Assembly (NCBI GenBank): GCA_000092065.1
Contig: CP000585.1
Length of the DNA: 64,000 bases
From: Ostreococcus lucimarinus
Taxonomy: Eukaryota
Direction: 5' to 3' (one strand)
A program made the position numbers and the translations under genes. The notes under the pieces were generated by a model. The model ran no database searches, was not told the origin of the DNA, and saw only the letters and a program-made list of their open reading frames with translations. Shown here piece by piece: positions 322-59,529 of this stretch; the first letter of the stretch is position 1; each line of letters begins with the position of its first letter.

Positions 322-482
322 ATGAATTACTTTTACGGCGTTGACGTTGATACTACACCATTCATTGAGAAATTTTAATACTAATCCCATTCTAGTTCCT
401 CCACCTTTGATTCGCGCGTCACCCCGCCGCCGCGCCAACGCCGAATTTCGCCGCCACCGCCGTCTTCATCGCCACCAACCCC

Positions 483-1757
483 ATGTCCGTAAACCCTAAA
501 AATAGCGTCAGCGCCGTCATCCCCAAAATCACCGCCACCGCGTTCGACGCGATCGCTCGCCACGTCTTCCCAGACGTCAGCGGCGCGGTCGGCCACCGCA
601 ACAGCGGCGTCACGAAGCTCAAATTCTCCGGCTGCTGCGCCATCCACGCCCGCATCGCGCGCGCGGCGTACTCCGCCAACGACTCCTCTCGCACGTCGTC
701 GTCGTACGCGCCATCATCGCGCGCCAGCGCCTCGCGCGTCACCGTTCGCGTCACCGTTCGCGTTCGAAGCCAACCCGCGGCGTCGAACGCCGTCACCGCG
801 CCCCGCGCCGCGCGCGCGCGCCGCCGCGCCGTCGCCGCACCGCTCGACGCGCGCGCGACTCTCGAAGTCGCGCGCGCGCGGATCGTCGCGCCGCACCGCG
901 TCGACGTCGTCGCCATTCGCCGCGATGTGCGGTACCTCAGAATGTCGCGCGGCGTCGCGCGCGCGCGCGCGGCGCCGGCGCCGGTCGCGCGGTTCCGCGC
1001 GCGGCGTCGCGCCGGTCGCGCGGTTCCGCGCGCGGCGTCGCTCGGCGTCGACCTCGAGCCCTGGGCGCGCCCGCTCGAGCGCGCGCTCGACTTTCGACGC
1101 GATGGCGCCGGAAGCGCGTCGAGCCGCGCCGCGTCGCTGTTCACGACGGCCGTCTTCGCGCGCGCGTACTGGCGCGGGTATCGACAGCTGTTCAGGGCGC
1201 TCGGGTACCCGGGAGCCGCCGCCGAGGCGTCGCTCGCGCTCGGGACGCTGCGGGACGGCGGCGCGATGCTGGACGTGTCGTGCGGACCGGGGCTGATACT
1301 CGACCTCTTGGCGCGCCATTCGGCGCGCTCGGGGAAGTGGGAGCGCGTGGTTGGTTTAGATTTTTCTCGAGAGATGGTGACACTGGCGCGCGAGGCGTGC
1401 GGCGAGCGCGCGACGGTGGTGGTGGCGGACGCGTGCGATTTGCCGTTCGCCGATGGCGCATTCGACGTCTTGCATTCGAGCGCGGGGGCGCATTGTTGGG
1501 GCGATTTGAACAGCCGTGGCGTTCCCGAGTCGGCTTTTCGCGAAATGTATCGAGTTTTAAAACCGACGGGGGAGATACTGGTATCGACTGTCGTCCTGCT
1601 GAAGCCGACGACGGTTGAGGAGGAGTACTCGCGAACGCCGAACACGCCATTTTTCGACGAACGCGCGGTGTGCCGGATGATTCAAGACGCTGGGTTTCGC
1701 GATGTTGAAGTTATAGCAAAGGATAAGTGTTTCGTGGCCGTCAAGGCTGTTAAGTGA
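483..1757 (+). CDS. Class I SAM-dependent methyltransferase of the plant plastoglobule type (At1g78140/At2g41040-like) with an Arg/Ala/Ser-rich N-terminal extension that looks like a transit peptide
   Basis: ATG at 483. The C-terminal half reads YWRGYRQLF...LDVSCGPGLI...GLDFSREMV...VVADACDLPFADGAFDVLHSSAGAHCWGDL...VLKPTGEILV, which is methyltransferase motifs I, post-I and II in the arrangement of plastoglobule methyltransferases. The N-terminal 200 aa are low complexity, so the true start is uncertain. Confidence 0.7.
   Translation: MSVNPKNSVSAVIPKITATAFDAIARHVFPDVSGAVGHRNSGVTKLKFSGCCAIHARIARAAYSANDSSRTSSSYAPSSRASASRVTVRVTVRVRSQPAASNAVTAPRAARARRRAVAAPLDARATLEVARARIVAPHRVDVVAIRRDVRYLRMSRGVARARAAPAPVARFRARRRAGRAVPRAASLGVDLEPWARPLERALDFRRDGAGSASSRAASLFTTAVFARAYWRGYRQLFRALGYPGAAAEASLALGTLRDGGAMLDVSCGPGLILDLLARHSARSGKWERVVGLDFSREMVTLAREACGERATVVVADACDLPFADGAFDVLHSSAGAHCWGDLNSRGVPESAFREMYRVLKPTGEILVSTVVLLKPTTVEEEYSRTPNTPFFDERAVCRMIQDAGFRDVEVIAKDKCFVAVKAVK
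979..1040. repeat. Perfect 31-bp direct repeat x2 (GCCGGTCGCGCGGTTCCGCGCGCGGCGTCGC) inside the methyltransferase N-terminal coding region
   Basis: Visible at 979-1009 and 1010-1040. It encodes a duplicated PVARFRARRRA peptide. A smaller gtcaccgttcgc x2 repeat sits at about 738-761. Confidence 0.7.
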
Positions 1758-1854
1758 AGAGATGGCGGCGGAGGTGGCGAGGTTACGAAGCGACGCTAGC
1801 GGCGCGATGAATAGAATTAAAAATCAGCAACGAAACGCTTGTGCGCGCGCGAAA

Positions 1855-2976
1855 TCAACGGCGAAGAATCTGCTTCAGCGCTTGGTCGATCCTCTCGTAC
1901 TTGAACTTATAACCCACATCAAGCGCGGTTTTGGGTTGGATTCTCTGCCCTTGAAGAACTAGAGTCGATCCTTCGCCGAGAACTGCGCGCAACGCGAAAT
2001 CTGGCACCGGCAACCAACTCGGTTTCCCTAAGGTCTCGCCGAGGGATTCGCACATCTCTCGCATGCGGACGGGCGTTGGCGCGACGCAATTCACCGGACC
2101 TTCAAGTTTTACGTTTGTCAAGCTCTCCATTATGATCCCCACCGCGTCGTCTCTATGAATCCAACTAAACCACTGCTGACCGTCGCCCAAGGGCCCGCCC
2201 ATGAACGCTTGGAAAGTCGGCACCATCTTCCCGAGCGCCCCACCATCTCGATCGAGCACAATCCCTAATCGCAGCAGCACCACTCTACAATCTTCAACCC
2301 CACTCGCGGTTTGTTCCCACGCCTGGCAGACTTGACTTAAATAGTCCGCGCCTGGCCCGCTCGCTTCGTCGTACGTATCTGTCTCACTCGTCCCGTAGTA
2401 CCCGATCGCCGAAGCGTTCACCAATACCTTAGGTCTCTTGGCGTCGTTTGTGATCGAATTCACGTGTTCGACGACCGCCTTGGTGGTTTTCACTCGGGAC
2501 GCCATGATTTCACCCTTCACCTTCGGGTCCCAGCGCGTGCTGATTGGTTCGCCAGCTAAATTCACCACGTGCGTCGCGCCGAGCAACCCGCGTCGCCACT
2601 TATCCGGAGACACAAACGCGACGTCGCCCTTTGGGAGATTTTGTGGAGAAAGCTTCGCGCGAGCGCGGTTGACGTCTCGCGTGAGCACTCGCACTTCGGC
2701 GCCCCGCTCGAGGAGCGTCTCCACTAGCTTGCTACCCACGAACCCGGTTGCGCCCGTGATGGCGACGATGAGCCGATCGTCGGACGACGCTACGGACAGG
2801 TCGTCGTCCACGCTCGCGGAAGGCGCTAGAGCGCCCCGACGTGCGCGCGTCGAGCGGAAAAGATGGCGACGACACGTCTTATCCACCGAACGGGACGGCG
2901 AGCGGAGGCGCGCGCAGGGCGTCGCATTGCTCGCCGGAGCACGATAAAACGCGTTACAAGTCACTGCTGACGTCAT
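1855..2976 (-). CDS. SDR39U1 / DUF1731 epimerase-family protein (plant GIANT CHLOROPLAST 1 / SulA-like) with a transit-peptide-like N-terminus
   Basis: ATG verified (cat at 2974-2976). Rossmann motif IVAITGATGFVGSKLVETLLERGAEVRVLTRD. C-terminal ...LVLQGQRIQPKTALDVGYKFKYERIDQALKQIL matches the DUF1731 tail of the YfcH/SDR39U1 family. The first 70 aa are Ser/Arg/Ala-rich. Confidence 0.8.
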   Translation of the reverse strand: MTSAVTCNAFYRAPASNATPCARLRSPSRSVDKTCRRHLFRSTRARRGALAPSASVDDDLSVASSDDRLIVAITGATGFVGSKLVETLLERGAEVRVLTRDVNRARAKLSPQNLPKGDVAFVSPDKWRRGLLGATHVVNLAGEPISTRWDPKVKGEIMASRVKTTKAVVEHVNSITNDAKRPKVLVNASAIGYYGTSETDTYDEASGPGADYLSQVCQAWEQTASGVEDCRVVLLRLGIVLDRDGGALGKMVPTFQAFMGGPLGDGQQWFSWIHRDDAVGIIMESLTNVKLEGPVNCVAPTPVRMREMCESLGETLGKPSWLPVPDFALRAVLGEGSTLVLQGQRIQPKTALDVGYKFKYERIDQALKQILRR

Positions 2977-4610
2977 CTCGTGGTTTGAAGCTCGCGCCCG
3001 GTGCGCACCGCGTCGTCGACTGCGGCCTCACCAACGACGGCTTGACGTTTTTGCAGGAAACTATGCCGCCGAGCGGCGTCGGGCGTCAACCGTCGAGACG
3101 GATTCCAGTGCAGCGCTCGTAGTAGAAATGCGTTGAACCGATCGTCGTCGATATCGATGACTTTCGTGCGCTTGCTTCGCGGCTTGTGCTTTGAGGATGT
3201 CCGATCGCTACGTTTGTCGTCTCGTCGACTTCTCGCAAACGACGACTCGCACACATGAAAGTCGACTCGGCGATCGGAGTGTGCTGCCGAGCTAAGAATG
3301 CGGCGTGGAGGAGGCCCAATCCGCGAGGTGATCGCGCTTAACTGGCGTGCCTCATCGTCGCCCACAAATAAAGTTTTGCCAGTGGCAAGCTCGGCGAGAA
3401 CGCACGCCAAGCTCCATACGTCAATGGGATGGCCGTAATCGATTCCGAGCATGACTTCCGGAGCGCGGTAGAATCGGCTCTGAATGTACGTATACACTTG
3501 TTTTCCCTGAAAACACGCGCTTCCGAAGTCGATGAGTTTGACATCGAACGAGCCAGGATGTTCTAGCAAAATGTTTTCGGGTTTGATGTCACAGTGCACC
3601 ACTTGCATGTGTTTGAGGTACACGAGCGCATCCACCATTTGCCGAGCGATATGGCGGACGTGTTGAATATCTAACTTCGCGAACGCGCGGGCTTCCAAGA
3701 ACTCGTACAAGTTGATGTGAAGCAGCTCAAACACAACGCACAATCGACCGCGAAACTTTAAATGCTCGAACATCTTCACTACGCGACTCGAACCACCTTC
3801 GACACGTTTGAGCACCGAAACTTCCACGCGAGCTTGACTCGCAAATGTTTCGTCAGGAGAAATCAGTTTAAGTGCCACTTCGCGCTTATATTTATGGTCA
3901 AAGCAACGCACAACTTGACCGAAATTTCCCGCGCCGAGTGAATTGAACATTTCAAATCGAAACGCCACGTGCTCGCCCTTCCTGATGCGAAAGGCATCGT
4001 CCTCGTCACCACTGCTAGCACCGGAACCGTGCGATAGCGTTTGCGTGTCGTCTGAGAGATGTTCTAGAGTCGGCACGTACCACACATGTTTGTAACGCAA
4101 AATATCGTTTCGGTCCATCACTCGAAGCCGCTTCCAAAACTTCTGCATCGCTTCTACGATCGACATTCCGATCGAGTCTCCATGCCTGGACCTATGAGTT
4201 TCCGGTGTCTGTTGGGATTGGTATTTTCGCCTCGCCGTGCCAGGCCGGCCGGTGGCGCCCGCGCCGTGTCGTCGACTCGAGCGCGCGCTGAGCGGTGGTA
4301 TGGTTGGTGTGAACTTAGGGGTCATGGCCGTTTCGTACGACGATGTCTGCTGGACCACGCCGAAACAACCATTGCAAGTTCCATATTTGTCGTCGGTCAC
4401 TCTGGCGTTTGCGAGCGCGTGCGAACGTAAACGAGTTTGAGTCACGGTCGCAGTGGCAAGTCTTCTCGGTGGAAGTTCGGTCAACGCGTCCACGCGGCGA
4501 GGAGCCGTAGAAGGCATACGACATCCTTCGCCGCCCGGTTTAGCGACTGGGTCAATTGTGAGGGTTGGGAAAATGCGCCTACGATCGTTTGTCGCATCTC
4601 GAGTCCGCAT
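2973..4610 (-). CDS. DYRK-family dual-specificity protein kinase
   Basis: ATG verified (cat at 4608-4610). Kinase subdomains include HCDIKPENILL, DFGSA, and activation loop YTYIQSRFYRAPEVMLG, the DYRK-type Y-x-Y. Its stop codon overlaps the start codon of the downstream gene in ATGA. Confidence 0.85.
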   Translation of the reverse strand: MRTRDATNDRRRIFPTLTIDPVAKPGGEGCRMPSTAPRRVDALTELPPRRLATATVTQTRLRSHALANARVTDDKYGTCNGCFGVVQQTSSYETAMTPKFTPTIPPLSARSSRRHGAGATGRPGTARRKYQSQQTPETHRSRHGDSIGMSIVEAMQKFWKRLRVMDRNDILRYKHVWYVPTLEHLSDDTQTLSHGSGASSGDEDDAFRIRKGEHVAFRFEMFNSLGAGNFGQVVRCFDHKYKREVALKLISPDETFASQARVEVSVLKRVEGGSSRVVKMFEHLKFRGRLCVVFELLHINLYEFLEARAFAKLDIQHVRHIARQMVDALVYLKHMQVVHCDIKPENILLEHPGSFDVKLIDFGSACFQGKQVYTYIQSRFYRAPEVMLGIDYGHPIDVWSLACVLAELATGKTLFVGDDEARQLSAITSRIGPPPRRILSSAAHSDRRVDFHVCESSFARSRRDDKRSDRTSSKHKPRSKRTKVIDIDDDRFNAFLLRALHWNPSRRLTPDAARRHSFLQKRQAVVGEAAVDDAVRTGRELQTTR

Positions 4611-5801: not shown

Positions 5802-8800
5802 CTATTCCATGATGTCGTCGACAGCGCCACCGAAGCGGCCCCACAAACCAGATCGGCGAGCGACGGGCTGTTCGGGCTCTTTCTCAGGTTCATCATCGAG
5901 GACGCTCTCGTCGACGGATTCTCCGGGTGCAAGCGCACGGCTCTCGACGATTATTTCGTTGCCGTCAGAGTCATACTCGACGATTTCAAGAATCTCTTCC
6001 GTCTCTTCAAGGTAACCAGGTTCTTCTTCCTGCTCGCCGTCTTCACTCGGTTCATCTTCAACTTCTGTGTCGTAGGTCGTGGCGATCTCGACGCGCGAGC
6101 CATACCTGCGCTCCATCGATTCTTCCACGTCGTACACGACGGTGGGTTTGGATGTAGGTGAAGGCGCGCTTCGAATCGGTTCTACTGGCTCCGGCTCGGG
6201 TCGCTTTGGAATTTCCGGCATCTCGAACGTTGGCTCGTCGCCCAAGTCAAAGTTCACCGTGGTCGAACCGACGTTCGGATCTGCCATCTTTGGCTCGGGT
6301 CTAGCCATGAGCTTGTCCCGTTCCGATCTCAACTCGTTTAGCTCCGCCAGCTGAGATTTACAGGTTTCGTGACACTCATCGAGAAGCTTCTGCAGTTCTG
6401 CGGTGCCGTCGTCATGCGGCTGTGATTTCGCAAGCACCAATGCCCTCTTAAGCTCCGCGATCTCCACCTTGAGTGTGATTAGGAACTCTTCAGCGCCTTG
6501 AGCGCGTTTGTCATTCATTCTAGCCCAGTTCTCGGCGTACTCGACGGCCTCTTGGCTTGACTTGATCTCGTCTTCCAACGTGGTGACTTCTTCTCGCGTG
6601 GACGCGAGTTCGATTTCAAGGTCGTGAATTTTAGCCCGAGTTGCAGCCGAATCGCCTGTCGCACCAGCGGCTTCGAGCTTCGCGGCCGCAATAGCCTTTA
6701 CAGACTTCTCGCGTTCATCGCTCAATTCATCTTCGAGATCACTGATTCGCTCTTTGAGTGCAGCCAGCTTGCCACGCAAGTCTTCTTCGTACTCAATTCG
6801 CACATTCGAAAGCTCGCTGCGCAACTTCGTAATCTTCGCGTCGCTCGCCTTTTGGATGCGCTGACTTTCAAACATAAGTTCTTCTTGCTCGGCCGCGTAT
6901 TCTTGGACTTGCGCGCGAAGCTTAGCCAATTCAACTTCGGCGTCGTTTAACTGTTCTTGTGTACGTTCGAGCTTCCGCTGAATCAAGTCAGCATTTTGTC
7001 TGGCTTCAATCTGGAAGAAGTTGAACTCCTTCGTGATAAAGTCCTTGGCGACACGCAAACGTTCGAGCTCGGCGAGAGCCTCGTCGAGTTCCTCCTTGAG
7101 AGATACATTTTCGTCGTTCAGCTTCTTGCCTGCGCTGATGAGGTCGGCACTCTTTGAGCTCACTCGTTCGGCTTCAGCGCCGAGCTCATTCTGAGTGCTC
7201 TCGTACTCAGCCTTGAGTTCCTTCACCTGCAACTCAAGACGCTCAATGAGCGTGGTTTGCGAGGTGATCTTTAAATGCAGTTCTTTCTTCACGCGCATAG
7301 TTTCCTCTGAAGCAACATTCGTCGCAGTCATCGCGGCAGTTGCCTCACGTTCTCGCGAGGACAGCTTCTCGCGTAGCGCGTGGACTTCACGTTCTCGCTT
7401 GGTGCGCTCCGTTACGAGTTCTGTTTCAAGATGTTCAACCTTCGTTCTGAGCACGTGAATCTCTCGCAGAAGATCGGGGTCGTTGCTTGATGATGCTTGA
7501 GATTTATCCTTCGCACCTCGCTCGAGCTCGTCCAATCTAAGACGGAGTTTCATCATGTCAGAAACAGCGACGTCACGCGAATCCGTCATTTCAACAAGAT
7601 CGCCCTCGAGATCTTCGATGATTCTCGCATAATCCCGCGCCGCGTTTTCGCGATCCTTGATTTCTTTACCTATGGCGAAACTGTGATCGGAAATGATCTT
7701 TTCAACTGCCGCGGCATGTTTGCGCTCGATCGAGATGATTTCTTGCTCGAGCTCTGAGATGCGCTGTCGCAGCGTTTTCACGAGTTCATCGTTCACACCT
7801 GTATTTTTCCCCTTGACGCGTTCGGCATCACTCAACTGTCGACGCAGCAAATCAAGCTCTTTCTCCAAAAGTTCTTTTTCCGAAACATGCTCGGCGGATT
7901 TCGCTTTGAGCGCGTCCAGCTCAGACTGCAACGAGGGGATGATCGACTGTTTCGCTTTCAGCTCGGCGAGCTTTTCTTGCAAAGCGGCAAGTTTCGTCTC
8001 CAACATCTTTCGTTCCTCATCGGCATTTGCCGACGCAGGCACTTGCTTTCTCAGCTCGTCCAAATCTGCTTGCAAAGTATGAATTGTTCTTGTCGCAACT
8101 TCACCGTGCACCTTTAATTCCGTTTTGAGCGACCCTGCGAAAGAAGAAGCCAGAGACAAAAGTCTCTTGTTACGAACATCACGAATCGTGCATCGTAACA
8201 ACGCCGCCCAGCGTAATTGTGCGCGTTCGGACTTGTTAAGGCCATATTGCTTGCCCTCCATATCTGCAAGTCGCTTCGCTGCAGACGCTGCGTCGGCCAT
8301 CGCTCGAGATTGCAGATCGTTGAAATCTCGCTCGAGTCGCTTAATCTTTTCCTGAGCGGCAGCATTTGCCGACGCAGGCACTTGCTTTCTCAGCTCGTCC
8401 AAATCTGCTTGCAAAGACTGAATTGTTCTTGTCGCAACTTCACCGTGCACCTTTAATTCCGTTTTGAGCGACCCTGCGAAAGAAGAAGCCAGAGACAAAA
8501 GTCTCTTGTTACGAACATCACGAATCGTGCATCGTAACAACGCCGCCCAGCGTAATTGTGCGCGTTCGGACTTGTTAAGGCCATATTGCTTGCCCTCCAT
8601 ATCTGCAAGTCGCTTCGCTGCAGACGCTGCGTCGGCCATCGCTCGAGATTGCAGATCGTTGAAATCTCGCTCGAGTCGCTTAATCTTTTCCTGAGCGGCA
8701 GCTAGGCCAACGCTTTGCTCGCCACCAGTGAGAAGCATCTTCTCCAAATCAGAAATCGTCTCATCTCGCTGCCCGATGATAGCTTGAGACTTTGTCATCT

Positions 8801-11800
8801 CGTACGAAACTCGGATCTTTTCCTTTTCGAGCTGTGAGATCTTCAACTTGAGATTAATAATCTCCTCCTGCAACGTGCGCTCTCGCGCCTCTGAGGACGC
8901 TTCAGATTCAGTGGCACCGGCGAGGCGCTTCTGCATGCCGTCGAGCTTATCCTGTAACGAATGAATGGTGATCTGGGCGGTGTTTCTGTGCGCAACGAGT
9001 TCTCGCAATGTCGCCTTGCTGTGGCCGAGAGCAATATTAAGGAAACGTCGATGGCCTTCCTTCACTTGCAAGATGCGGCACGTCGTGCGCCAACGAAGCG
9101 CGGCACGTTCTGATTTCGTGTGCATCATTGCATCATCGTGCGTTCTCTCCAATGAGACACATCTCTTTCGTAAAACATCCAACTCCTGCTCAAGCCGCTG
9201 AGCGACGCGAGCAGCATCTTCTGCGTCTACAGCAGACTGAGCCTTGAAGTCCTCGTACTGCATTCGCAACTCAGACAACTCGCGACGCGTAGTAATGGCG
9301 TCTCCCGACATCGAAGACTTCGACTTCTCCAACTCTGTTTCATGCTCCAGTAATAGCCTTTCGAGCTCCTCAACTCTTGAATCGCGAAGTCCCAAAGTAC
9401 TAGCGTGACGGAACTTGAGCACAGTGAGTTCCTTCTTCTGAATTTGCACGAGATCGGCAATTTGCTGCTCAAAGTCGGCGTGCGCTTGCTCGGCGCGTTT
9501 CGCAGCGTCAGCGGCTTCAGCGCGCATGCGCTCTCTCAATTCTCCAAGTTGCTGCTCGAAGTTCGCCACCATAAGTTGGTATCGAGATTCAGAATCTTCA
9601 GCATCCGATGCTGCTTTCGCCTTGTGCCGAGCAGACAGACTTTCGAGTAAAGTCTTAAAGTTCGCCTGCGCTTCAAGTTCGCGTTCAGCCGCTTCATCCG
9701 CCGCCGCGCGCAGTTGTTGCTCGAAATCCGCTTGCGATTGCTGCGCGCGTGCTTCAGCGCTGTCAGCATCAGCTTTCATGCGCTTGCGTAAATCCTCGAG
9801 CTGCTTCTCGTACTCTTCCTTCATCTGCAGGAAACGAGCGTGTTCAAACGTTGCATCGGACTTTGACTTATTCTTCAATCGCTCCGCCAAGTCATCGAGC
9901 TGATTTTTGAAATCAACCTGCGCTTGGTGCTCGCGCGCAGCACTTTCATCTGCGTCTATACGTGCGCGTGTGCGAAGATCTTCGATTTGCTTGTCATAGT
10001 CGGATTTCATGCTTTGGGCTCGACTCTTCGCCTTTTCCGCGTCAAGCTTGAGTTGATTCTGGAGGTCGTCCAATTGCGCAACAAGGTTCGCCTTTTCGTC
10101 CTGAAGACGCTGCAACTCCGAAGAAGCGGTGGATTTCGTGGAATCCATCGAGGACTGTGCCTCTTGAAGCAAGAGTTCAAGCTCGGCGACGCGTGCGTCG
10201 CGCACGCGTACAGTCTCGTCGAGATCTTCGAGCGCCTTCAGCTTCGCTTTCACTTCAAGCATCTGGTCATTGAGCGAGCGAATCGTCTTGTCGGACGTCG
10301 CCGCCCAGCTGCGTGCCTCGACGAGCTCGGCGGACGTAAACGATTTTACGAGTGCGACATGACGCTGGTGCAACCTTCGTGCGCGCAAGACGCGGCACAT
10401 CCAGGACCAGCGCAACGACGTTCGTTGAGACAAAGCACGCGCTTCCGCGTCTACGAGAGCCTTTTCAGCGGCTGCAAGTTGCGAGCGGAGAGCATCACCG
10501 TCATTTGAAGCCGCGCTGGTCTTCAATGATAACCCTTCCAACTCGGCCCGCAGCGTCTCAATTGTGCTCGCCAACGTCAACTTTTCTTCGGAGGAAACTT
10601 TCAGTAACTCCTTCAGATCGCTAACAGACTTCTGAAGCGCGGTTATATCATCAGCCGCTCGACTGTTTTCACCCTTCGCCGCTTGCAAAGCAATTTTATA
10701 ACCATTGACATCTTTTTCGAGTTCAATGATTCGCGCGACTCGCTTTGCTTCTTCATCCGCGCTCCATTGTGCTTGGAGAGTTTCAATTTGGCTTCGCGAC
10801 TCGGCGAGCTCGCGGCGTAAAGTGATGACGTCCCCGGTAGAAGTAGACTTCAACGCCTCCCAATCGTTCTGTGATTCAAGTAACAGAGCCTCGAGTTCGT
10901 GAATGCGTTTGTCACGAAGTCCCATAGCACTCGCTTGACGGAACTTGACAACCGCAGAATCCTTCTTGTGAACTTCAGCGAGATCAGCCAGTTGTTGCTC
11001 GAAATCCGCTTGCGATTGCTGCGCGCGTGCTTCAGCGCTGTCAGCATCAGCTTTCATGCGCTTGCGTAAATCCTCGAGCTGCTTCTCGTACTCTTCCTTC
11101 ATCTGCAGGAAACGAGCGTGTTCAAACGTTGCATCGGACTTTGACTTATTCTTCAATCGCTCCGCCAAGTCATCGAGCTGATTTTTGAAATCAACCTGCG
11201 CTTGGTGCTCGCGCGCAGCACTTTCATCTGCGTCTATACGTGCGCGTGTGCGAAGATCTTCGATTTGCTTGTCATAGTCGGATTTCATGCTTTGGGCTCG
11301 ACTCTTCGCCTTTTCCGCGTCAAGCTTGAGTTGATTCTGGAGGTCGTCCAATTGCGCAACAAGGTTCGCCTTTTCGTCCTGAAGACGCTGCAACTCCGAA
11401 GAAGCGGTGGATTTCGTGGAATCCATCGAGGACTGTGCCTCTTGAAGCAAGAGTTCAAGCTCGGCGACGCGTGCGTCGCGCACGCGTACAGTCTCGTCGA
11501 GATCTTCGAGCGCCTTCAGCTTCGCTTTCACTTCAAGCATCTGGTCATTGAGCGAGCGAATCGTCTTGTCGGACGTCGCCGCCCAGCTGCGTGCCTCGAC
11601 GAGCTCGGCGGACGTAAACGATTTTACGAGTGCGACATGACGCTGGTGCAACCTTCGTGCGCGCAAGACGCGGCACATCCAGGACCAATGCAAAGCTGCG
11701 CGCTCTGACTTGGCTTGCACGAGCGCCTTTGCGCGCGTCGTGTTGGATTCGTCGAGCTGCTCGCGAAGAATTCTGAGCTCGCCGTGCAAGCGCGAGACTT

Positions 11801-14800
11801 GACCGGAGGATGAGCTCCTCGCTGACTCAAGTGAAGTTTCATATTCACTTATAGCGGTCTCCAGACGCTGGCGTTCGAGCTCAAGTTCATTGATACGGGC
11901 TTCCTTCTCCTCAATTTCATCCTTGTGCGTGTGACGCGCAGCAGTGAGAAGTTTTTCGTGCTCGTCGATGGAAGCTTCGAGGCGCTTGACGAGCGCTTCC
12001 AATTCAGTAATACGGCGCTGATCGACGTCCTTCTTCTTCAACGATTCAAATTTCGCGCGCAATTTTTCAACCTCGGACTTGTTCTTTTCATCCGTCTTTC
12101 GAGCTGACCTATTGGCATTGTCGAGTTTTTTCTCGAGATCACGTATCGTTTCTCGCAAGGCATCCGCTTCTCTTCTGGAAACCTTCACAGCTTCGTCATA
12201 CCGCTTTTTCGAATCCTTGTCCAGCGTGTCGAGATCCCTGTTCAGTTGCTTCGCGAGTTTACCACTCTCGGAGAGTTTCTCCTCCAAATCTTTGACTTTC
12301 ATCCGCGCTTGCGACTCATCCGAAGCCATCTTACCCTTTAACGTAGTGATTTCGTCTTGATGCGCTTCTTCCTTCTTCGCGGCGTCGTCAGCGCGTTGCT
12401 TCAGTTTGGCGTTGGATTCATTCAACGACGTAATCGTGCGCTGAGTGAACTCTACGTAGAGTTTATGATCAGCTCTCATGCCACGAGTGAAGTCCTTTGA
12501 GGTATCGAAGAACCTGTCATGACGATCTCGCTGTTTGACATTCGTAAGGAGTAGTCTCCATCTTGCCGCCGCGAGCTTCGCGGATGATGTCTCCTGGAGC
12601 CCGGCATAAAGTGAACTCGTTTCGTCGAGGCGGTTACGGAGCGTCGCGCACTCCGATCTCAATCGCGACTCTTCTGAGGAGAGTCGCGCTTTTGTTGATT
12701 CCGCGCTCGACTGGAGTTCTTTCATGCCATCCTCCAAGGAGGCGATGAGCTGTTGAAGCTCCTCAATTCGAGCTTCCGACGCCTTCTTTATCCCCAGATT
12801 CTTTGCGACTTCATTTTCGAGTTGCTTCTTAAGATTACGAATTTCGTCGTTCAGAGAGTTGATCGTTCGCTCGCTTTGCTTTTCAATTGAGGCCCGATTC
12901 TTTTCCGCTTCTTCAAACTGCTTCTTCATGACGTTCAAATTGTCATCGCGTCGCTTTCGCAACATCTTGAGCTCTTCGTCAACCTTTGATTTGCTCTTTT
13001 TACTTCCTTCCAGGTCATTCTTTAGCGCCGCAACCGTGTCACCGAGCGAACGAACCGTCTTTGTCGATGCCTCCGCGTGAAGACGGTATTCAGTCCTCAT
13101 CGACTTGACAAAGTCGCGAGCTGTGTGCGTAAATCGGATGCCACGATTTCTTAGACGAAGCTCGTTGGCCAACATCGACCAGCGAATACGGACACGATCC
13201 CTCTTCGAGGCTACGTGAGCTTCCGCTTCCGCTTTCCACGCGTCTCGGATGTCTTTGATTTCCTGCTCGAGGGAGCGAGAATATGCCGTCTTCGTTTCGT
13301 GTAACGAGTTCTGATAACTTTCGACCATACCTTCGAGCACCCCAATGCGCTCGTCGCGCGCCTTCATAGCGCCGTCGGTCTGGAACATTTCGCCTTGCAT
13401 CTGTTCGATTTGCGTCTCAAATTGCTTGGATTGCTTATGCATTTCCTTCAGGTCCGTCTTCGACTTTGCTATAGTACCTTCGAGCGACTTGTTCTTGCTT
13501 ACCATATCAGCGAGCTCCTTCTTTAGCGCTGCTATTGTGTCACCAAGCGAGCGAACTGTTTTTGTCGTGCCCTCGGCGTGAAGCCGATATTCAGTCTTCA
13601 TTGACTTGGCAAAGTCCTTTGAAGTATTCAGGAATCGAAGGTGTCGCTTACGCGTGCGAAGGAGCGAGCACAATGCAGTCCAGCGGCTCGTCGCGAGTTC
13701 ACTCTGCAAGACATCGATACGCTCTCGCAAAGTTGAAATTTCGCCTTCAAGTTCACGGGAATACCGCGTTTTTGTTTCGTGCAGAGATTCCTGATACTCA
13801 CTCACCATCTTTTCAAGCGCTTGAATACGATTATCGCGGGCGGCCAACGCAAGTTCATTATTGAATTTGAATGCGTCACTCTCACGGACTTCGTTCTTCA
13901 ATGCTGCCGCAAACTGTTTCGAATTCTGGAAGAATCGATTATGCCGAGCCTTGAATGTAAGGAAGCGCGCAAAGTGAGACCAACGAAGCGTGGCCAGCTT
14001 CGATCGATGCTCGCTGTCGCCTTCTGCAAGACGCTTTTCTAACTCGACAACACTTTCCGCCAGCGATTCTTTACTTGCCATCATATCGCTGAGGTCCTTT
14101 TCAAGCCTTTTGATCGTCTTGTCACTCTCACGGACTTCGTTCTTCAATGCTGCCGCAAACTGTTTCGAATTCTGGAAGAATCGATTATGCCGAGCCTTGA
14201 ATGTAAGGAAGCGCGCAAAGTGAGACCAACGAAGCGTGGCCAGCTTCGATCGATGCTCGCTGTCGCCTTCTGCAAGACGCTTTTCTAACTCGACAACACT
14301 TTCCGCCAGCGATTCTTTACTTGCCATCATATCGCTGAGGTCCTTTTCAAGCCTTTTGATCGTCTTGTCAAGGGACCGTATCGTTGCCGTCGCCGCGGCA
14401 GCGTGCTGCCTATATTCCTCCTTCATGGATCTGGAGAAGTCCTTTGAAACAGCGTAAAATCTGGCGTGCTTTTGAATGATTCGTGATTTGCTATACATCG
14501 CGGCCCATCGCAATCTTGCCCGTTCACTCCTTCCGTTCGCGATCGCTGAAGCGTGCGCAGCCTGTTCCGAGGTCAGCCTGCTTTGAAGGCGTGCAACTTC
14601 GCCCTCGAGGTCGCGGGAATACCTCGTCTTTGTTTCGTGCAATGAGGATTGATACTCCTGCAACATTCCTTCGAGGGTCACAATGCGCTTGTCTCGAACA
14701 TCCAAGCATTCCGCGTGATCTCCCCTGAGCTTCGCAATAATCGCTCGCAGTTCATCATTGCGCTTCGTGAGTTCGGCGTTTGTTGCTTCGGCTTTGTCTT

Positions 14801-17670
14801 GCAGAGACAAATATCTTCTGTTGATCGATTCTGTACCTTTCACGGCTGAATCCAGTGAACTACGCAACGTGTCGTTCGCTTGAGCCATGTCTCGCTCTCT
14901 GGTCGCCGAGAATTCTGCATTGACGTTGTACTGATGCTTGAGAACGCTCAATTCGTCAGCAAGTGCCAGTAATTCAGACTTAGCACTGTCGCGCGATGCC
15001 GTCATGTTAAGCAAATCATTCTGCAAAAATTCAACCTTTTGCTGCCATTCCTTGACGTTCGCTGCGTGACTTCCGCGAAGTTGTCTATCCCTGGCGTCGC
15101 TCTCACTCGTCTTAAAATCAAGCTGAAGTCTGAGTTCGGCGATTTGAGCCTGAAGCTGCTGCGCGCTCACATCAGCGGCGCGCGTCTCCACTGGCCGCAT
15201 CGATTCGACATGTTGAATCTTGATGTGCTTCTCTTCAAGAATCTGGCAGCGCTGCGTAACCTCACGAATCGATTTGGTAACTGAGACCTTGTGCTGCTCG
15301 GCCATCAAAGTCGACTTGGTGGATTCGGATACCGCAACTTCAAGCTGCTTGCTCTTAATATCGAGCCTGCTCAGATCCACGGATTGCGTGTTGATGATGT
15401 TGTAGGCTTCACGCAGCTTAGCGGCCTCGTTCTGCTTCACCAATGTGAATTCCTTGTCCTTTTCGCGCAGAAGTCGTCTGTACTTGGCGACATCTTCTTC
15501 ATTCTTCGCACGCAACTGCTTACACTGCTTCTCAAGCTGAGCCATTTTCAATTGATCCGCCTCGCTCATCGACGGCACCGCGGCTGTCTCGCCATCGGTT
15601 GCACGTACCGGATATTTTTTGGCAATTTCGTTCTCAAGCGCTTGAACTCGTCGCTGATCCTTCTCACGAAGCTCGCAGACAGTCTTCAATTCAGTCTCTG
15701 TGTTAGTGAGCTTTACGAGTAGAGCGTCGTACGCGTTCTTGAGGCTTGTTCCGCGAATGGACGCGCGCCATTTTGCAACACCGAGCGCGGCGCGACGGTC
15801 GGATAACTCGGCTGTTCTCGACTCGAGTTCGCGTTCAATGCCCGTGATTTGATCGCTAAGACTATCGATCTTCTCGTCTCGGCTACGAAGGTCACGAATG
15901 TACGACGCGTGATCCGTTTTCAATTCGAGGATTTCTGCATCTTTACTCTTTAGTGACGATTCGAGCAACCCCAAAGAGTCCGCAGCGGCTTGCTTCTGAC
16001 TCTCCATCGACGCTTGTGCGGATTTGAATGCCTCAGTGCTGGAGTGTTTCAACTCTTGGAGCGCAGCCTCACCGTCGGAGATCTGCTGTCGCAGTTGCGC
16101 AATGATAGTATTCGACTTGATGACGTGCGCGCTGTGCGCCTGTTGAGCCGCCGAGTGATCAGCGTCGAGTTTCTCCGACGCATCTCGAAGAGTCGCGATT
16201 TCCTTACGTAACTCATCGATCAACGCGGCGTTTCGCTCGTTGTCGCGGCTTTGTAACTCCTCTTTTGACTTGAGCTGCACTTGAGACTCAACTTCATCCT
16301 TCCGTAACTTTTCTATGGTGTCCAAATACTCAAGCATGCGCGTCTTGAGCGCAAAGTTTTGCATTCGCGAAGTTAAGTGCGCGAACGTCAATCCGGTTCT
16401 CCGCTCGATCAACGTTCGTTCAACGTCCGGCACACCCTGATTGGAATTGTAGTGAAGTGTGTGACGGTCGCTTGTCATCAAGTCACGGATTTTCGCACGG
16501 CAAACTTGAAGTTCTTCCTCTATCAAATGCTTGCGGCCTCGGACACTTTCTTCGCGCGATTCCGCTTTGGACAAGAGACGCATCAGTCGCGAAATCTCGG
16601 CGCGTAGATTCGTCCGATCCGTGTCAAACTTAGTGCGATCTCGCTTGCGCGACTTTTCACTCTGCGTGATCTTCGTGCGAATAATGGTCGTCTCGCGTAC
16701 GTGCGACTCAATGCTCTCCTTCAACTTGCGCTCAATCACCGTCGTCGTGCTCTGCGACTGCTCCAACTCCTTCGTTAGAAGCTTGATTTCTGAGGTGAGC
16801 TTCTTCGAAGTGGTTTGAAGTTCTTTCGTCGCGCTGTCGCGCTCGCCCGTCACAGCGTTGATCCGCACTCTTAAAGCATTGAGTTCATCCTTCAGGCGAT
16901 CGACTTCTTCGGACTTGCCATCGAGGCTCTTCTTGAGAGCAGCGTTTTCGATTTCAAGTTTGTGTTTGTCATCTTCCAACTTCGCGAAGGCCTCGTTGGT
17001 TGATATAGAGATGTTAATCGACGACTTGATGTCATACGAGCTCTTTAACTCGATTTCAAGCTTCGAAATGCGCTCCTGCGCGTTCGCGTTGATTTTCTCG
17101 AGCTCGATGATGTCCTTCTTCAACTTGGCGTTCAAGTCGTCGAGTTGATCGCGCTTGCGGCGTTCGTCGAGCGCATTTTGCTTAGTCACTCGATTCGCGG
17201 CCTCAATAGCAGCCTCGAGAGAGCGCTTTGCCTTTACTCGATCCTTCTCCGCGTTTGCAGTCAGTTCTTGAATCTTCTTTTCCATATGTGCCTTGAGGTC
17301 GTTCAACTCTTGCTCGAGCGCGGCCTTCGCCGAACGCTCCTCGCCGAGCCAGCGCGTGTGCTCCTCGAGCGCGGCTTCTGCGGTCGCGCGTCGCTTGTGA
17401 CAGTCGCCACAATCATTGCGCTCTGCACGAAGCGCTTCTTCTGCACGTAACGCTCGAACGCGCCAACTATCATCGACAGTCTTGACTCCGCCGTCTGTGC
17501 CTCGCCATGCTTCGAGCAGGGCAAGCGGTTCAACACGAAAACTCACCCCCATGGGGTTATCGACGCGTTTAATGAGCGGACTCGTGCTCAACTCGGGTTC
17601 ATCGTGCACGTCAGACCCATTCGTTAACCCATCCAACAGTCGAGAGATGGCGCTTGCGGAATCTTCTTTT

Positions 17671-17711
<41 letters not shown>

Positions 17712-17981
17712 TGCCTTGGGCTTGGGCTTCTCTCTCTTCGGCCTTGGCGACGGCGAGCGCCTCTCTCTCGCCTCGCGCGGCCGATTTATGAAATCATCCC
17801 GACTTTGTCTGGTATCGACCCCCAAAAGCATCCCTTTGAAGAAATTCACTGATTTCCCGTTCGCCTCCCCGTTCTTGGCCCCCGTCCTCGTCTTACCGTC
17901 CGTCGGCGGAAGTTCGCACCCTTCGCCGCCGAATCGGCACTCTGCGCGCGCGCGAGCGATCATCGCACCATCGTCAATCAT
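5802..17981 (-). CDS. Giant (about 4,060 aa) coiled-coil protein with an N-terminal poly-Pro tract, at least 11 copies of a Trp-containing ~45-aa module, and an acidic C-terminal tail
   Basis: A single uninterrupted 12.2-kb ORF. The track start at 17987 is a TTG; the first ATG is the third codon, at 17981-17979. Heptad-like E/K/R/L/Q-rich sequence runs throughout. The module (K)SERAxLRWxxxxxxxRxxxRFxxxSKDFxxSMxxEYRLH...KTIRSL recurs. It ends in the acidic EDEPSEDGEQEEEPGYLEETEEILEIVEYDSDGNE. Undetected introns cannot be excluded. Confidence 0.7.
8024..8700. repeat. Intragenic tandem duplication, 2 x ~339 bp, near-identical, inside the giant coiled-coil gene
   Basis: The sequence from gcatttgccgacgcaggcacttgctttctcagctcgtcc through to cttaatcttttcctgagcggca occurs at about 8024-8360 and about 8361-8700 with only a few mismatches. 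The track shows identical 76-aa antisense ORFs at 8125..8355 and 8464..8694. It duplicates a 113-aa protein segment. Confidence 0.9.
9706..11693. repeat. Intragenic segmental duplication: two near-identical ~710-bp copies (9706-10415 and 10984-11693) separated by 568 bp (copy starts 1278 bp apart), inside the giant coiled-coil gene
   Basis: Identical strings such as ttgctcgaaatccgcttgcgattgctgcgcgcgtgcttcagcgctgtcagcatcagctttcatgcg begin at 9721 and 10999. Identical antisense ORFs sit at 9924.. and 11202... The duplication covers an approximately 235-aa protein segment. More diverged paralogous copies of the same unit exist elsewhere, for example about 9390-9480 against 10925-10990. Confidence 0.9.
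13875..14370. repeat. Intragenic tandem duplication, 2 x 246 bp, near-identical, inside the giant coiled-coil gene
   Basis: The sequence gtcactctcacggacttcgttcttcaatgctgccgcaaactg... occurs at 13875 and 14121. The track shows identical antisense ORFs at 13990.. and 14236... It duplicates an 82-aa segment. Confidence 0.9.
17673..17712. repeat. (GGC)13 microsatellite encoding the poly-Pro tract (P14) of the giant protein
   Basis: The run ggcggcggcggc... is visible. On the minus strand the CCG frame gives PPPPPPPPPPPPPP. Confidence 0.9.
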
Positions 17982-18808
17982 CGTCAATCGCGGTCATCGC
18001 GCGCGTTCCGATTCGCGCGCGTTCGCCTCGCCTTCGCTCGCCTCGCCTCGCCTCGCCCGCCGCGTTCAACCGCACGTACTCGCCAACCATTCAAATTTAT
18101 CGCTCCGCATCGACGCCAACGTCTCATCCGACCCCTTCGTCGTCCTCGCCCAATCCTCGCGTCCGATCGGCGTCGTCGGTCGCGCGCTCATCGCGCCTCG
18201 ATCGCCTCCGCGCCGGTCTCACGCGCGCGAACGCGACGCGATTCGAACGTTCGTTGATTCGCAATCGCAATCGCGATTCGTTCCGTGGGACGACCGTCCG
18301 CGCGGTCTCGTTCGCGTCGTTCGCGTTCGCTCGCGGTGCGCGCGCGCGTGCGTTCGCTCGCGCTCGCGCTCGCGCTCGCGCTCGCGTCGACGGCGCCGAA
18401 CACTGCCGCGCGCGCGCCTTCGGAATTGAATTCCCGAATCGAGGCCGACGCGTCATCCTCGCGCTCGACGAGTCACGACCCGTCGCGAGTGGATTTCTCA
18501 TAATACACACACGGACCGTCGCCGCCGCGGCGCCGCGCGAAGGGTCGGTCGCGCGAGTGCGCGGCGCGGACCTCGCGCGCGCGTCGAGCGACGCGTTCGC
18601 GCGCGCGCGGATCGACGCGCGCGAGCGCCCGAAGCGTCCGCGCGGACGCGCGACGGCGTCGACGCGAAAAAGCGGCGACGCGCGGTGGAATCGCGACGAA
18701 AGGACGCCGAACGGACGGACGCGGAGAATCGAACGAGCGACGGCGTGACGCGCGAGCGGACGCGCGCGCGCGCGAGTGGACGCGCGTCGGACGCGAGCGT
18801 CGAAGACG
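17982..18808. promoter_or_regulatory. Divergent (bidirectional) promoter / 5'UTR region between the giant coiled-coil gene (-) and the ACT-domain kinase (+); contains simple repeats
   Basis: The two ATGs face away from each other. The region contains (GCCTCG)n at about 18033-18058, (CGCTCG)n at about 18355-18400, and a cgcaatcgcaatcgcgattcg near-palindrome at about 18258. The inference is positional. Confidence 0.4.
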
Positions 18809-20536
18809 ATGAGTCGGCAGAGAGAGTCGAAGGAGGAAGTCGCGCGACGAGCGTTGGCGGAGTTTAGTTCGCAGATCGAAGAGGTTACGCGGAGCTCGGG
18901 GGACGCGACGACGAGGGCGCGGGTGGAGCGACATCTGACGCGATTGCCGAGGCAGTACTCGCTGGACGTGAACTATCTTGAGGATATTCTCGCGCACGCG
19001 GATATTCTGGATAAGGCGGCGACGGATGATCGCGAAGGGACGGGGGGGCGGAGGTCGGGGGTATGGTGCACGTGTCGCGAGGTCGACGTGTCGAGAAAGA
19101 ATGCAGAGGTCGTCGACGCCATGGATGCCGACGATTCGACGTCGATGGATCATAACTCGCGCGGCGTGGATATTCTACGTCATGGAAGTGGGTACGGGGG
19201 ATCACACAGCGGGTCGACGAGACCCAATTTGCGCGCGCCGACGTTTGGTTCGAGCTTGACGTTGACGATGCTCGGCAGTACGGCGGATCCTCGACAGGTG
19301 GGGATGTACGAGATCGCGGTGAGCGCGGGGAACAAACCACGTTTACTCTCGCGCGTGTCCGCCGTTTTATTCGACGTTGGGTTGAACATTGCCGAAGCGC
19401 ACGTTTTTTGCACCGACGATGGTTACGCGTTGGATATTTTCATAGTCACGGGTTGGCGACAAGGAGACGCGGCCTCGGTGCAATCAGCCGTACAGACAGC
19501 ATTAGATGCCGCGGACTTTAGCGATTTACCGGCATCTTCGAAAGGAACGAACGCGATCACCTCCAGTCAAGGATCTGAGGGCAGGATGTCGAACCCCTCT
19601 GGCGATAGGTCAAACTCAGATTCCATCTCCATAGACGGCGGCGAATGGGAACTCACTGAAAAACAGCTCGTGTTTAACGAAAAGATCGCTAGTGGAGCGT
19701 TTGGGCTTTTGTATAGGGGGAGCTACTGCGGCCAAGAGGTGGCCATCAAAGTCCTGAAGAGCAACGCCGCGGAGGGCTCGGGGGCCGAGACGTTGCGCGA
19801 ATTCGCGCAAGAGCTCAACATTTTGCGACGTGTTCATCACAAGAACATCATACAGCTCATCGGAGCGTTGACAAAGCAAAAAACGATGTGTCTAGTCACC
19901 GAATTCATGCACGGTGGGAACCTTCTGCAGTACGTGCAAGAGCACGCGCTCAAGCTTCCCGAGCTCATTCGGTATTCTCTAGGAGTCGCCATGGGTTTGG
20001 ATTACTTGCACAAGATTAACATCATCCATCGCGACATCAAGACGGCGAACTTACTTTTGGATGAAAATAACGCGGTGAAGATCGCAGACTTTGGCGTCGC
20101 GCGCATCCAGCCCACGGATGGGTCAACCATGACGGCGGAAACCGGCACTTACCGATGGATGGCGCCCGAAGTCATCGCGCATCAATTCTATAACGAGAAA
20201 GCTGACGTGTACTCGTACGGTATCATGGTTTGGGAGCTCGTGAGTGGCGGCGAAGTACCTTATCCCGGCTACACCCCCTTACAAGCCGCTGTCGGCGTCG
20301 TGCAGCGCGGGTTGCGACCGACGATTGCTCCGTCGTGCCACGCCGTCATCGCGCAAGTGATGCAGTACTGCTGGCTCGTCGACCCCAACGCCCGCCCTGG
20401 TTTCGAGCAAATCATCTCGTTGCTAAAGCACGTCGACGTTCCGCGCGAACAAGAGGGCAAGCACGGGTTTTTCGATCGTTTGAGATCGGTGAGCTTCAAG
20501 TCAAAGAAAAAGGAAGCACAAACGCGCAGCGGTTGA
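18809..20536 (+). CDS. Ser/Thr (dual-specificity, TKL/STY-type) protein kinase with an N-terminal ACT domain
   Basis: The track start at 18776 is a GTG, and the first in-frame ATG is at 18809 (MSRQRESKEE). The ACT-like segment is VGMYEIAVSAGNKPRLLSRVSAVLFDVGLNIAEAHVFCTDDGYALDIFIV. Kinase motifs present are GSGAFGLLYRG, VAIKVLK, HRDIKTANLLLDE, DFGVAR and GTYRWMAPE. Confidence 0.85.
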   Translation: MSRQRESKEEVARRALAEFSSQIEEVTRSSGDATTRARVERHLTRLPRQYSLDVNYLEDILAHADILDKAATDDREGTGGRRSGVWCTCREVDVSRKNAEVVDAMDADDSTSMDHNSRGVDILRHGSGYGGSHSGSTRPNLRAPTFGSSLTLTMLGSTADPRQVGMYEIAVSAGNKPRLLSRVSAVLFDVGLNIAEAHVFCTDDGYALDIFIVTGWRQGDAASVQSAVQTALDAADFSDLPASSKGTNAITSSQGSEGRMSNPSGDRSNSDSISIDGGEWELTEKQLVFNEKIASGAFGLLYRGSYCGQEVAIKVLKSNAAEGSGAETLREFAQELNILRRVHHKNIIQLIGALTKQKTMCLVTEFMHGGNLLQYVQEHALKLPELIRYSLGVAMGLDYLHKINIIHRDIKTANLLLDENNAVKIADFGVARIQPTDGSTMTAETGTYRWMAPEVIAHQFYNEKADVYSYGIMVWELVSGGEVPYPGYTPLQAAVGVVQRGLRPTIAPSCHAVIAQVMQYCWLVDPNARPGFEQIISLLKHVDVPREQEGKHGFFDRLRSVSFKSKKKEAQTRSG

Positions 20537-59206: not shown

Positions 59207-59463
59207 CGCGAACGACCAGATATTCCGCCCCGCGCTCGCCTCGCGCCATTGTATTCTTAAACGCCACCCCATCCGCCTCGCCACTCGCCTCGCCGCTCAC
59301 ATTCCAGCATCGTCGCGTCGTGATACGCGAGGGTGTTAACCACCTCAATCAATCCAGTCATCCCGCGCGACCGCACACGCGCGCGTTTCGTCCGCGTCGA
59401 GCCGTGCGCATCGCGTGCGACACCGATCGACGCGTTTCGTCGAGCGGCGTCGCCGGACGCGTC

Positions 59464-59529
59464 ATGGGCGCCGAACCGACGGCGCGATCGGTCGTCACGA
59501 CCGCGAGCGGTCGGTTGACGACGGTGAAA

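Follow-up and report, generated by a model that had tools for sequence, protein, structure and literature searches.

A giant coiled-coil protein of Ostreococcus with an array of basic, aromatic helical modules: a possible structural scaffold

Ostreococcus is the smallest free-living eukaryote and serves as a model minimal eukaryote with a compact genome, and the presence in such a genome of a single uninterrupted gene of 12 kb raises the question of what its product does for the cell. The gene lies on the minus strand of a 64,000-nucleotide stretch of Ostreococcus lucimarinus DNA (GenBank assembly GCA_000092065.1, contig CP000585.1; hereafter the window) and encodes a protein most of which is predicted to form a helical rod. 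The gene, its architecture, the conserved module that recurs along the rod, the conservation, predicted helicity, and charge of that module, its detection in Ostreococcus only, and the transcription of an ortholog are secure as description. The explanation that we favor, with a confidence that falls a little short of an even chance, is that the rod is a structural scaffold or tether and that the modules are its docking or cross-linking patches, as judged from the chemistry of the module surface.

The open reading frame (ORF) runs without interruption from 5802 to 17987, and translation from its first ATG, at 17981, gives 4,059 amino acids rich in Glu, Ala, Leu, Arg, Lys, and Ser, which agrees with an initial annotation, made from the letters alone, of a single-ORF gene for a protein of ~4,060 residues. 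The gene and its largest part are placed as follows:

5802 to 17981, minus strand: giant gene, a single exon of 4,059 codons plus the stop codon at 5802-5804 (ORF list and translation)
6402 to 17381, minus strand: helical rod, amino acids ~201-3860 (~3,650 residues), supported by heptad periodicity relative to shuffled sequence, scarcity of Pro, and the helix predicted by AlphaFold2 (AF2)

Pro is clustered in the first ~150 and last ~200 residues, with nine between amino acids 200 and 3860, and a Pro-free run of 2,272 residues (930-3202) holds 10 of the 11 modules, the one outside being the duplicate at W3258. By a crude, home-made test of a/d hydrophobic periodicity, which used no trained predictor, 38% of residues lie in 28-residue windows that exceed the 95th percentile of shuffled sequence, compared with 3.4% in the shuffles themselves. 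Together with the Pro-free run, this supports the heptad-rich coiled-coil character that had been attributed to the protein. The whole protein has no match to Pfam at E ≤ 1, and it shows the generic features of a long coiled-coil structural protein, a Pro-poor helix with heptads and without globular or enzymatic domains. At the alpha-helical rise of 0.1485 nm per residue, the rod would measure ~540 nm if fully extended.

All 11 modules, each of ~55 amino acids with an invariant Trp, are carried by the central ~2,150 amino acids of the rod. They are listed here by the position of that Trp in the protein, with scores against a hidden Markov model (HMM) and, for three of them, identity to the ortholog on contig L002 of the lineage termed species C:

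14367 to 14534, minus strand: module copy 1 (W1159), HMM 92 bits, L002 ortholog 61% identical
14088 to 14255, minus strand: module copy 2 (W1252), a short variant without the RLH...KTIRSL tail, HMM 74 bits, within the 246-nucleotide tandem repeat
13842 to 14009, minus strand: module copy 3 (W1334), an exact recent duplicate of copy 2, absent from protein P0079 and contigs L008-L010
13542 to 13709, minus strand: module copy 4 (W1434), nearest to the consensus, HMM 99.5 bits, helical within the AF2 model
13041 to 13208, minus strand: module copy 5 (W1601), HMM 91 bits
12420 to 12587, minus strand: module copy 6 (W1808; WRLLLTNV...), HMM 86 bits
11547 to 11714, minus strand: module copy 7 (W2099; WSWMCRVLRARRLHQRH type), HMM 87 bits, L002 ortholog 71% identical
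10269 to 10436, minus strand: module copy 8 (W2525), a duplicate of copy 7, overlapping the 699-nucleotide exact repeat
8952 to 9119, minus strand: module copy 9 (W2964), HMM 87 bits, L002 ortholog 56% identical
8409 to 8576, minus strand: module copy 10 (W3145), HMM 84 bits
8070 to 8237, minus strand: module copy 11 (W3258), a recent duplicate of copy 10, absent from P0079 and L008-L010

The 11 copies reduce to eight distinct ones because three pairs are recent duplicates, each of which is evident at the DNA level:

13875 to 14366, minus strand: exact tandem duplication, 2 × 246 nucleotides (82 amino acids), 246 of 246 identical (repeat search)
8023 to 8700, minus strand: tandem duplication, 2 × 339 nucleotides (113 amino acids), 337 of 339 identical (repeat search)
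9711 to 11687, minus strand: duplication with a 1,278-nucleotide period, whose 699-nucleotide cores at 9711-10409 and 10989-11687 are identical at 699 of 699 positions (repeat search and self-BLAST)

A profile of the eight distinct copies, searched against the protein itself, recovered all 11 (E = 1e-18 to 1e-33) and elsewhere gave a single weak partial match (E = 8e-6). The count of 11 copies, eight of them distinct, given in the initial annotation is thus matched by the positions, the profile self-search, and the duplicates in the DNA; the three module strings that it quoted as examples occur verbatim in the protein, and its consensus equals the one obtained here, KSERAxLRW-x2-L-x3-LRxRxRHxRF-x3-SKDF-x2-SMKxEYRLH-x5-KTIRSL. 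The regular spacing that it had also described did not hold up, as successive Trp residues are 93, 82, 100, 167, 207, 291, 426, 439, 181, and 113 amino acids apart, a range of 82-439 that also differs between species and natural variants. A second element, RDxRIxxLExMVxEYQxSLHETKTxYS, recurs eight times in the protein, at amino acids 1096, 1382, 1542, 2168, 2356, 2594, 2866, and 3072. At four of these (1096, 1382, 1542, and 3072) a module Trp follows 52-73 amino acids downstream; the remaining four lie 98-370 amino acids short of the nearest module Trp that comes after them.

13755 to 13838, minus strand: example of the RDxRI element (regular-expression search and alignment)

The module is defined by a small set of residues rather than by its whole length. 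Conservation was scored over 33 full copies from four species, with positions counted from the Trp as 0: W0 and L45 are invariant, and they are followed by F23 (94%), R15 and E30 (91% each), H13 (79%), T41 (76%), and S44 (70%). Hydrophobic residues occupy the heptad positions 0, 3/4, and 7, after which the core positions 10, 21, and 28 are basic and 14 is merely non-hydrophobic, and the conserved F16, L17, F23, M27, and Y31 lie on a shifted stripe. This break in the core covers +8 to +40, after which the canonical pattern is seen again at 42, 45, 49, 52, 56, and 59. Each 45-residue module carries a net charge of +5 to +8, compared with a mean of 0.05 ± 3.3 for the rod, and is enriched 12-fold in Trp, 4-fold in Phe, and 2.7-fold in His. 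The AF2 model of amino acids 1372-1512, which hold one RDxRI element and module copy 4, was run as a monomer on an alignment of paralogous and orthologous units and is one unbroken helix (residues 2-140, 139 residues; predicted local distance difference test score, pLDDT, 94.9). The continuous helix and the core break together indicate that the module is a basic, aromatic helix with a heptad break rather than a globular or non-helical insert. The initial description of the module as non-coiled is accordingly half right, in that the canonical heptad core is interrupted inside it while the predicted helix is continuous with the rod. Given the single predicted helix, a spectrin-like bundle, or a helical hairpin formed by the RDxRI element and the module, was rejected; a spectrin repeat is a three-helix bundle of ~106 amino acids with a conserved Trp, and Pfam gave no spectrin match. 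Single modules (n = 8) have no match in Pfam at E ≤ 10, with Sfi1 (PF08457) and IQ (PF00612) included, and the module profile has no significant match among solved structures, which bears out the view that the module had not been described.

To what extent the array is kept in related genomes bears directly on whether the modules matter. An exhaustive HMMER search of 1.84 billion representative proteins with the module profile returned nine matches at E ≤ 1e-3, of which eight are fragments or orthologs of the giant gene and one is spurious; segment searches with the giant protein found close relatives only, and a word-indexed search with a 28-copy alignment returned one fragment and added nothing. 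A metagenome scan with an alignment of the C-terminal region recovered 23 loci with 46-100% identity from at least five Ostreococcus lineages, and modules are present at every locus with enough upstream DNA, in 5-12 copies per ortholog (11 or 9 in O. lucimarinus-type contigs; 11, at least 7, 7, and 5 in other lineages). Complete ORFs in two lineages encode 3,355 and 3,104 amino acids. The most divergent lineage is Ostreococcus sp. RCC789, assigned via a neighboring gene, and the flanks of the orthologs have a guanine-plus-cytosine (GC) content of 0.52-0.57, which fits Ostreococcus. Contig L003, suspected from its GC of 0.49 to belong to Bathycoccus, was removed from that genus by its RCC789-assigned neighboring gene and a flank GC of 0.53. 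The family thus appears, from these sequence searches, to be restricted to Ostreococcus.

Within the genus, the order of the modules is collinear between O. lucimarinus and species C, and orthologous copies are more alike (identity 0.45-0.71) than paralogous ones (mostly 0.2-0.4). This implies that the array predates speciation and that recent lineage-specific duplications were added to it. The modules are present and collinear in orthologs of at least five Ostreococcus lineages, which settles favorably whether those reported initially would be found in orthologs. At the exact point where contig L003 ends in a non-templated poly(A), the genomic contig L005 runs on into different sequence, indicating that the ortholog gives rise to an mRNA longer than 10 kb.

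The copy number and length of the array vary among natural sequences. Among environmental contigs of the O. lucimarinus type, L007 matches the reference with 11 modules, and L008-L010 have nine. Protein P0079 (3,864 amino acids) is shorter than the 4,059-residue protein by exactly 195 amino acids, which equals one 82- and one 113-amino-acid tandem copy and implies nine modules. Between the modules at W2525 and W2964 lie 1311, 1092, or 951 nucleotides, depending on the contig. Such variation could be real polymorphism or could come from short-read assemblies that collapsed repeats. Every species has a duplication of the WSWMCRVLRARRLHQRH-type module (window 9711-10409 and 10989-11687; P0106, amino acids 925 and 1316; L002, nucleotides 5425, 6703, and 7021), and the copies of this module are near-identical within a species (100% over 699 nucleotides in O. 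lucimarinus) and ~66-71% identical between species, a pattern that suggests gene conversion or independent recurrent duplication. In the clade-D-like genomic ortholog, an in-frame stop at L005 9992-9994 splits the gene into 2,663 and 597 amino acids; the mRNA-derived P0089 reads through this position (...TAHHEKSKMKSQ...), and the stop is probably a strain variant or an assembly error within a local tandem repeat. The species-C orthologs L001, L002, and L004 ('pilon' contigs) contain frameshifts that break the gene into 10-20 short gene calls. These are typical of long-read errors in repetitive, purine-rich coding DNA and would explain why public protein sets hold only fragments of the gene.

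On the scaffold or tether reading, the protein would form a coiled-coil rod, presumably dimeric and ~0.5 µm long when extended, with disordered, motif-bearing ends. Each module is predicted to remain helical, but the canonical a/d core is locally exchanged for basic residues, and a second stripe on the c and g faces of the helix is made up of Trp, Phe, Phe, His, Arg, Glu, Thr, and Leu, all of them invariant or nearly so. The module would then present an exposed, strongly basic, aromatic patch that could bind an acidic partner or a neighboring rod. We read this patch as an interface because ~10 residues are conserved on non-core faces, together with the strong positive charge, across ~35 copies. 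Several observations weigh on the other side. Whole-module identity between orthologs is 0.33-0.58, no higher than in the flanking rod (0.37-0.49), so that constraint falls on ~10 positions rather than on the whole segment. Lineages and natural variants differ in how many modules they carry (5-12) and in how these are spaced, which argues against a precise stoichiometric or ruler-like function. In addition, an AF2 monomer does not separate a coiled coil from an isolated helix, and the docking role is suggested by the surface chemistry of the module only.

The most serious alternative, if an unlikely one, is that the modules are binding sites for an EF-hand protein, centrin or calmodulin, and that the rod is a Ca2+-responsive scaffold like Sfi1 or the giant centrin-binding proteins of ciliates. 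In its N-terminal half, the module forms a basic amphipathic helix that shows the W1xxL4xxxL8 orientation of the XPC/Rad4 site; the Trp is present in 100% of the 33 copies, with a hydrophobic residue at +3 in 97% and at +7 in 73%. The centrin site of O. lucimarinus Rad4 has been given as W1xxL4xxxI8, printed as WRLLLGAI (PMC3871271), which may be set beside WRLLLTNV in module copy 6, and the single centrin of O. lucimarinus must serve all targets (PMC3871271). The top Protein Data Bank (PDB) match of the eight-copy profile was 5k8q_B, the calmodulin-binding peptide of STRA6 (PMC7317449). That match had E = 0.75, however, and was dropped after it vanished with a 27-copy profile of the N-terminal half, whose top match was a chance light-harvesting complex motif, SERVHARWAML, at E > 1. 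Moreover, heptad a-d-a has the same 1-4-8 spacing, which a Trp at any core position would produce and which is therefore no diagnostic sign of centrin binding. An Sfi1 repeat places its hydrophobic triad ahead of the Trp (L8xxxF/L4xxW1; PMC3871271), an orientation absent from the modules: of the 33 copies, only 24% have a hydrophobic residue at position -3, and 64% carry Ser at position -7. Pfam gave no match to Sfi1 or IQ. The IQ core [FILV]Qxxx[RK]Gxxx[RK] is likewise lacking, as the module consensus LRxRxRHxRF has neither the Q nor the G. Finally, conservation extends over ~55 amino acids, and its second half (F23, E30, H34, T41, and L45) is left unexplained by a site of ~17 amino acids. 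A role at basal bodies, to which the initial annotation had extended this idea, is unlikely, since Ostreococcus seems to lack centrioles or basal bodies (PMC3144413) and has its own genuine Sfi1 (PMC3871271), and since the family was detected only in this non-flagellated genus.

The modules could instead be purely intramolecular discontinuities of the heptad pattern, such as stutters, skips, hinges, or flexible joints, that tune the bending or folding of the rod without any external ligand, which we regard as rather unlikely. The register does shift on entry into the module, with the core broken from +8 to +40 and heptads back at +42, the predicted helix is continuous, and variable module number and spacing are evidently tolerated. 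A hinge, however, would have no use for the invariant Trp, for the Phe, Phe, His, Arg, Glu, and Thr conserved away from the core, or for the positive charge (+5 to +8) that ~35 copies from four species have kept; surface conservation of this kind usually marks an interface.

It is improbable, in our judgment, that the basic aromatic patches bind polyanions (chromatin or DNA, acidic tubulin tails, or acidic membranes) and that the rod is a nucleoskeletal, spindle-matrix, or organelle tether in a cell nearly devoid of other cytoskeleton. Modules charged at +5 to +8 that also expose Trp and Phe would suit such ligands, and the length of the rod is comparable to the nucleus, which in O. tauri is <1 µm across (PMC3777167). 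The same species has ~10 spindle microtubules for 20 chromosomes, and clustering of kinetochores has been proposed (PMC3777167). A basic stretch near the N-terminus, RPKREKPKPK, could be a nuclear localization signal. Against this, Pfam finds no DNA-, microtubule-, or lipid-binding domain in the protein, and polyanion binding is a special case of docking that nothing specific favors.

That the module is a functionless by-product of repeat expansion by unequal crossing-over in a featureless coiled coil is highly improbable and, from the alignments, already largely refuted by collinear orthology: the three duplications that are 99-100% identical in DNA, the 11 versus 9 copies among environmental O. 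lucimarinus-type contigs, and the whole-module identity no higher than in the flanks would fit it, but the eight old copies, at 20-58% pairwise identity, retain the same key residues, the collinear ortholog of each copy is closer than any paralog, and the array occurs in every Ostreococcus lineage with enough sequence.

A bolder form of the scaffold reading, which we consider a long shot, would make the rod the backbone of a hitherto unseen, genus-specific, non-tubulin, non-actin skeleton (a nucleoskeleton, spindle matrix, or organelle tether). The 5-12 basic Trp modules would serve as its nodes, either joining rods to one another or collecting chromatin, kinetochores, or a Ca2+ sensor such as centrin, and the skeleton would thereby offset a minimal conventional cytoskeleton. 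An extended rod of about half the cell diameter from a single 12-kb gene does suggest an important structural job. Centrin binding by the modules would make the protein a second centrin scaffold, distinct from Sfi1, in an organism that has no centrioles; cross-linking of rods would make it a lineage-specific cytoskeletal element; and should neither hold, it would be one more clade-restricted coiled-coil protein. An unusual mechanism is not indicated so far, and the gene is well defined and experimentally tractable. The module offers a compact handle of ~10 conserved residues, suited to point mutagenesis, peptide pull-downs, and tagging, and gene targeting is available in O. tauri. Our literature search returned no relevant description of a giant coiled-coil protein or an unexplained filament system in Ostreococcus.

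Outside the module array, conservation is concentrated toward the ends of the protein and in a few segments of the rod:

17382 to 17981, minus strand: N-terminal ~200 amino acids outside the rod, with most of the Pro and without heptad signal (three-species alignment)
17673 to 17708, minus strand: run of 12 Pro, amino acids 92-103, kept as a poly-Pro of 9-12 residues in three species
15630 to 15797, minus strand: degenerate Trp element at W738 (RRAALGVAKWRASIRGTSLKNAYDALLVKL), which the clade-D-like ortholog keeps with very little change (RQAALAVAKWRNTIRAHSLKNAYDALATKL)
6402 to 7994, minus strand: most conserved part of the rod, amino acids 3330-3860, including AKDFITKEFNFFQIEAxQNxDLIQRKLERTQEQLNDAEVELAKLR and WAKMNDKRAQGAEEFL
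5805 to 6401, minus strand: C-terminal tail, amino acids 3861-4059, acidic, Pro-rich, and disordered (alignments; AF2 pLDDT 57)

Short motifs common to three species near the N-terminus (ECRFGGEGC[ED][LM]P, with two Cys close to the terminus, SPLIKRxDNPMGxSFRxEPLALLE, and DCxDC) might serve in acylation, in metal binding, or as profilin/SH3-type sites. Two stretches in the N-terminal third of the rod are highly conserved as well: amino acids ~520-560 (16300-16420) hold PDVE[RK]TLIER[RK]TxLTFAHxxSRMQNFALK, nearly unchanged in the clade-D-like ortholog, and the stretch around W738 follows the pattern R[RQ]AALxVAKWRxxIRxxSLKNAYDAL. The C-terminal ~730 amino acids are the most conserved region of the protein, with 57-70% identity to divergent orthologs compared with 37-49% in the module-array region. 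Near-invariant motifs of this C-terminal rod and tail are AKDFITKEFNFFQIE...RKLERTQEQLNDAEVELAKLR, MNDKRAQGAEEFL, TVNFDLGDEPTFEMP, EETEEILEIVEYDSDGNEIIVESR, and the terminal GLWGRFGxAxDDIME; the conserved motifs of the tail include the last two of these and TVNFDLGDEPTFEMPxIP. The region is probably the seat of partner binding or targeting. The AF2 model of the tail has a weak beta-hairpin at the EETEEILEIVEYDSDGNEIIVESR motif (EILEIVEYDSDGNEIIVESR) and a short terminal helix and is otherwise predicted to be disordered. Given a pLDDT of 57 and only this hairpin, a globular C-terminal targeting domain was rejected, and neither Pfam nor AF2 finds a globular domain at either end that would give a clue to localization.

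The giant gene sits among intron-poor, compact housekeeping genes (kinases, UCH-L5, an epimerase, tetratricopeptide repeat proteins, NMT, Gpi16, and a UvrD helicase), and the order ACT-kinase, giant gene, UCH-L5, kinase, epimerase is kept at all recovered ortholog loci. Two paralogous Ser/Thr-Tyr-type kinases lie beside it on the plus strand (18776-20536 and 24806-26482), the first with an ACT domain; this ACT-kinase belongs to the flanking conserved synteny block in all lineages. The GC content of the giant gene is 0.525, compared with 0.58-0.60 in its flanks, and its coding strand has a strong purine (A over T) bias, with an AT skew of -0.14 to -0.25 on the plus strand, both of which are consistent with a composition rich in Glu, Lys, and Ala rather than with foreign origin. 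A second big ORF at 58954-63918 on the plus strand encodes 1,654 amino acids rich in Ala, Glu, Leu, and Arg and has no Pfam match at E ≤ 1e-5. Neighboring ORFs of the window are matched exactly by XP_001418003 and XP_001418005 (UCH-L5) of O. lucimarinus CCE9901. In a collection of 15 billion proteins, the neighbors are present with NCBI and UniRef accessions and the exact 4,059-amino-acid sequence was not found, nor was an NCBI- or UniRef-sourced record of the giant protein among the matches that list their sources. The gene may be mis-modeled or unannotated in the reference annotation.

Among known systems, Sfi1 in yeast and human and the giant centrin-binding proteins of the ciliate infraciliary lattice and myoneme are likewise very long helices with many Trp motifs, and Ostreococcus has the centrin partner of Sfi1-type proteins (PMC3871271). 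O. lucimarinus also has an Sfi1 of its own, with 1,315 amino acids and 28 L8xxxF4xxW1 repeats (PMC3871271). Sfi1 repeats, however, are contiguous with a period of ~23-33 amino acids, whereas the Ostreococcus modules span ~55 amino acids and are parted by 82-439 amino acids of rod, and hydrophobic residues precede the Trp in Sfi1 but follow it in the module. The orientation of the XPC/Rad4 site is alike, with the Trp, hydrophobic residues at +3 and +7, and then basic residues, although that site is a lone peptide of ~17 amino acids in a DNA-repair protein and the Ostreococcus pattern is embedded in a conserved coiled-coil segment of 55 amino acids, in which 1-4-8 spacing would arise in any case. 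The IQ motif, which binds calmodulin or myosin light chains, is also a basic helix with conserved Arg and aromatic residues. Pericentrin/AKAP450 and golgin-type tethers share the rod of several thousand residues with disordered ends or small terminal targeting motifs, whereas Pfam detects no PACT, GRIP, GRAB, or other terminal domain in the Ostreococcus protein, and its C-terminal tail, which gave no match to the PACT profile, is predicted to be disordered. Clade-restricted giant coiled-coil scaffolds are already known, while the module itself appears to be undescribed and no relatives were detected outside Ostreococcus in the sequences searched. Closest in general character are trypanosome NUP-1 (PMC3313915) and the plant NMCP/CRWN lamina proteins (PMC11604088), which are also large, clade-restricted coiled coils with internal repeats and without enzymatic domains, and which act as structural analogues of missing cytoskeletal systems. 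They have no sequence relationship to the Ostreococcus protein, and in contrast to the near-perfect long tandem repeats of this class, its repeats are short conserved modules set in a non-repetitive rod.

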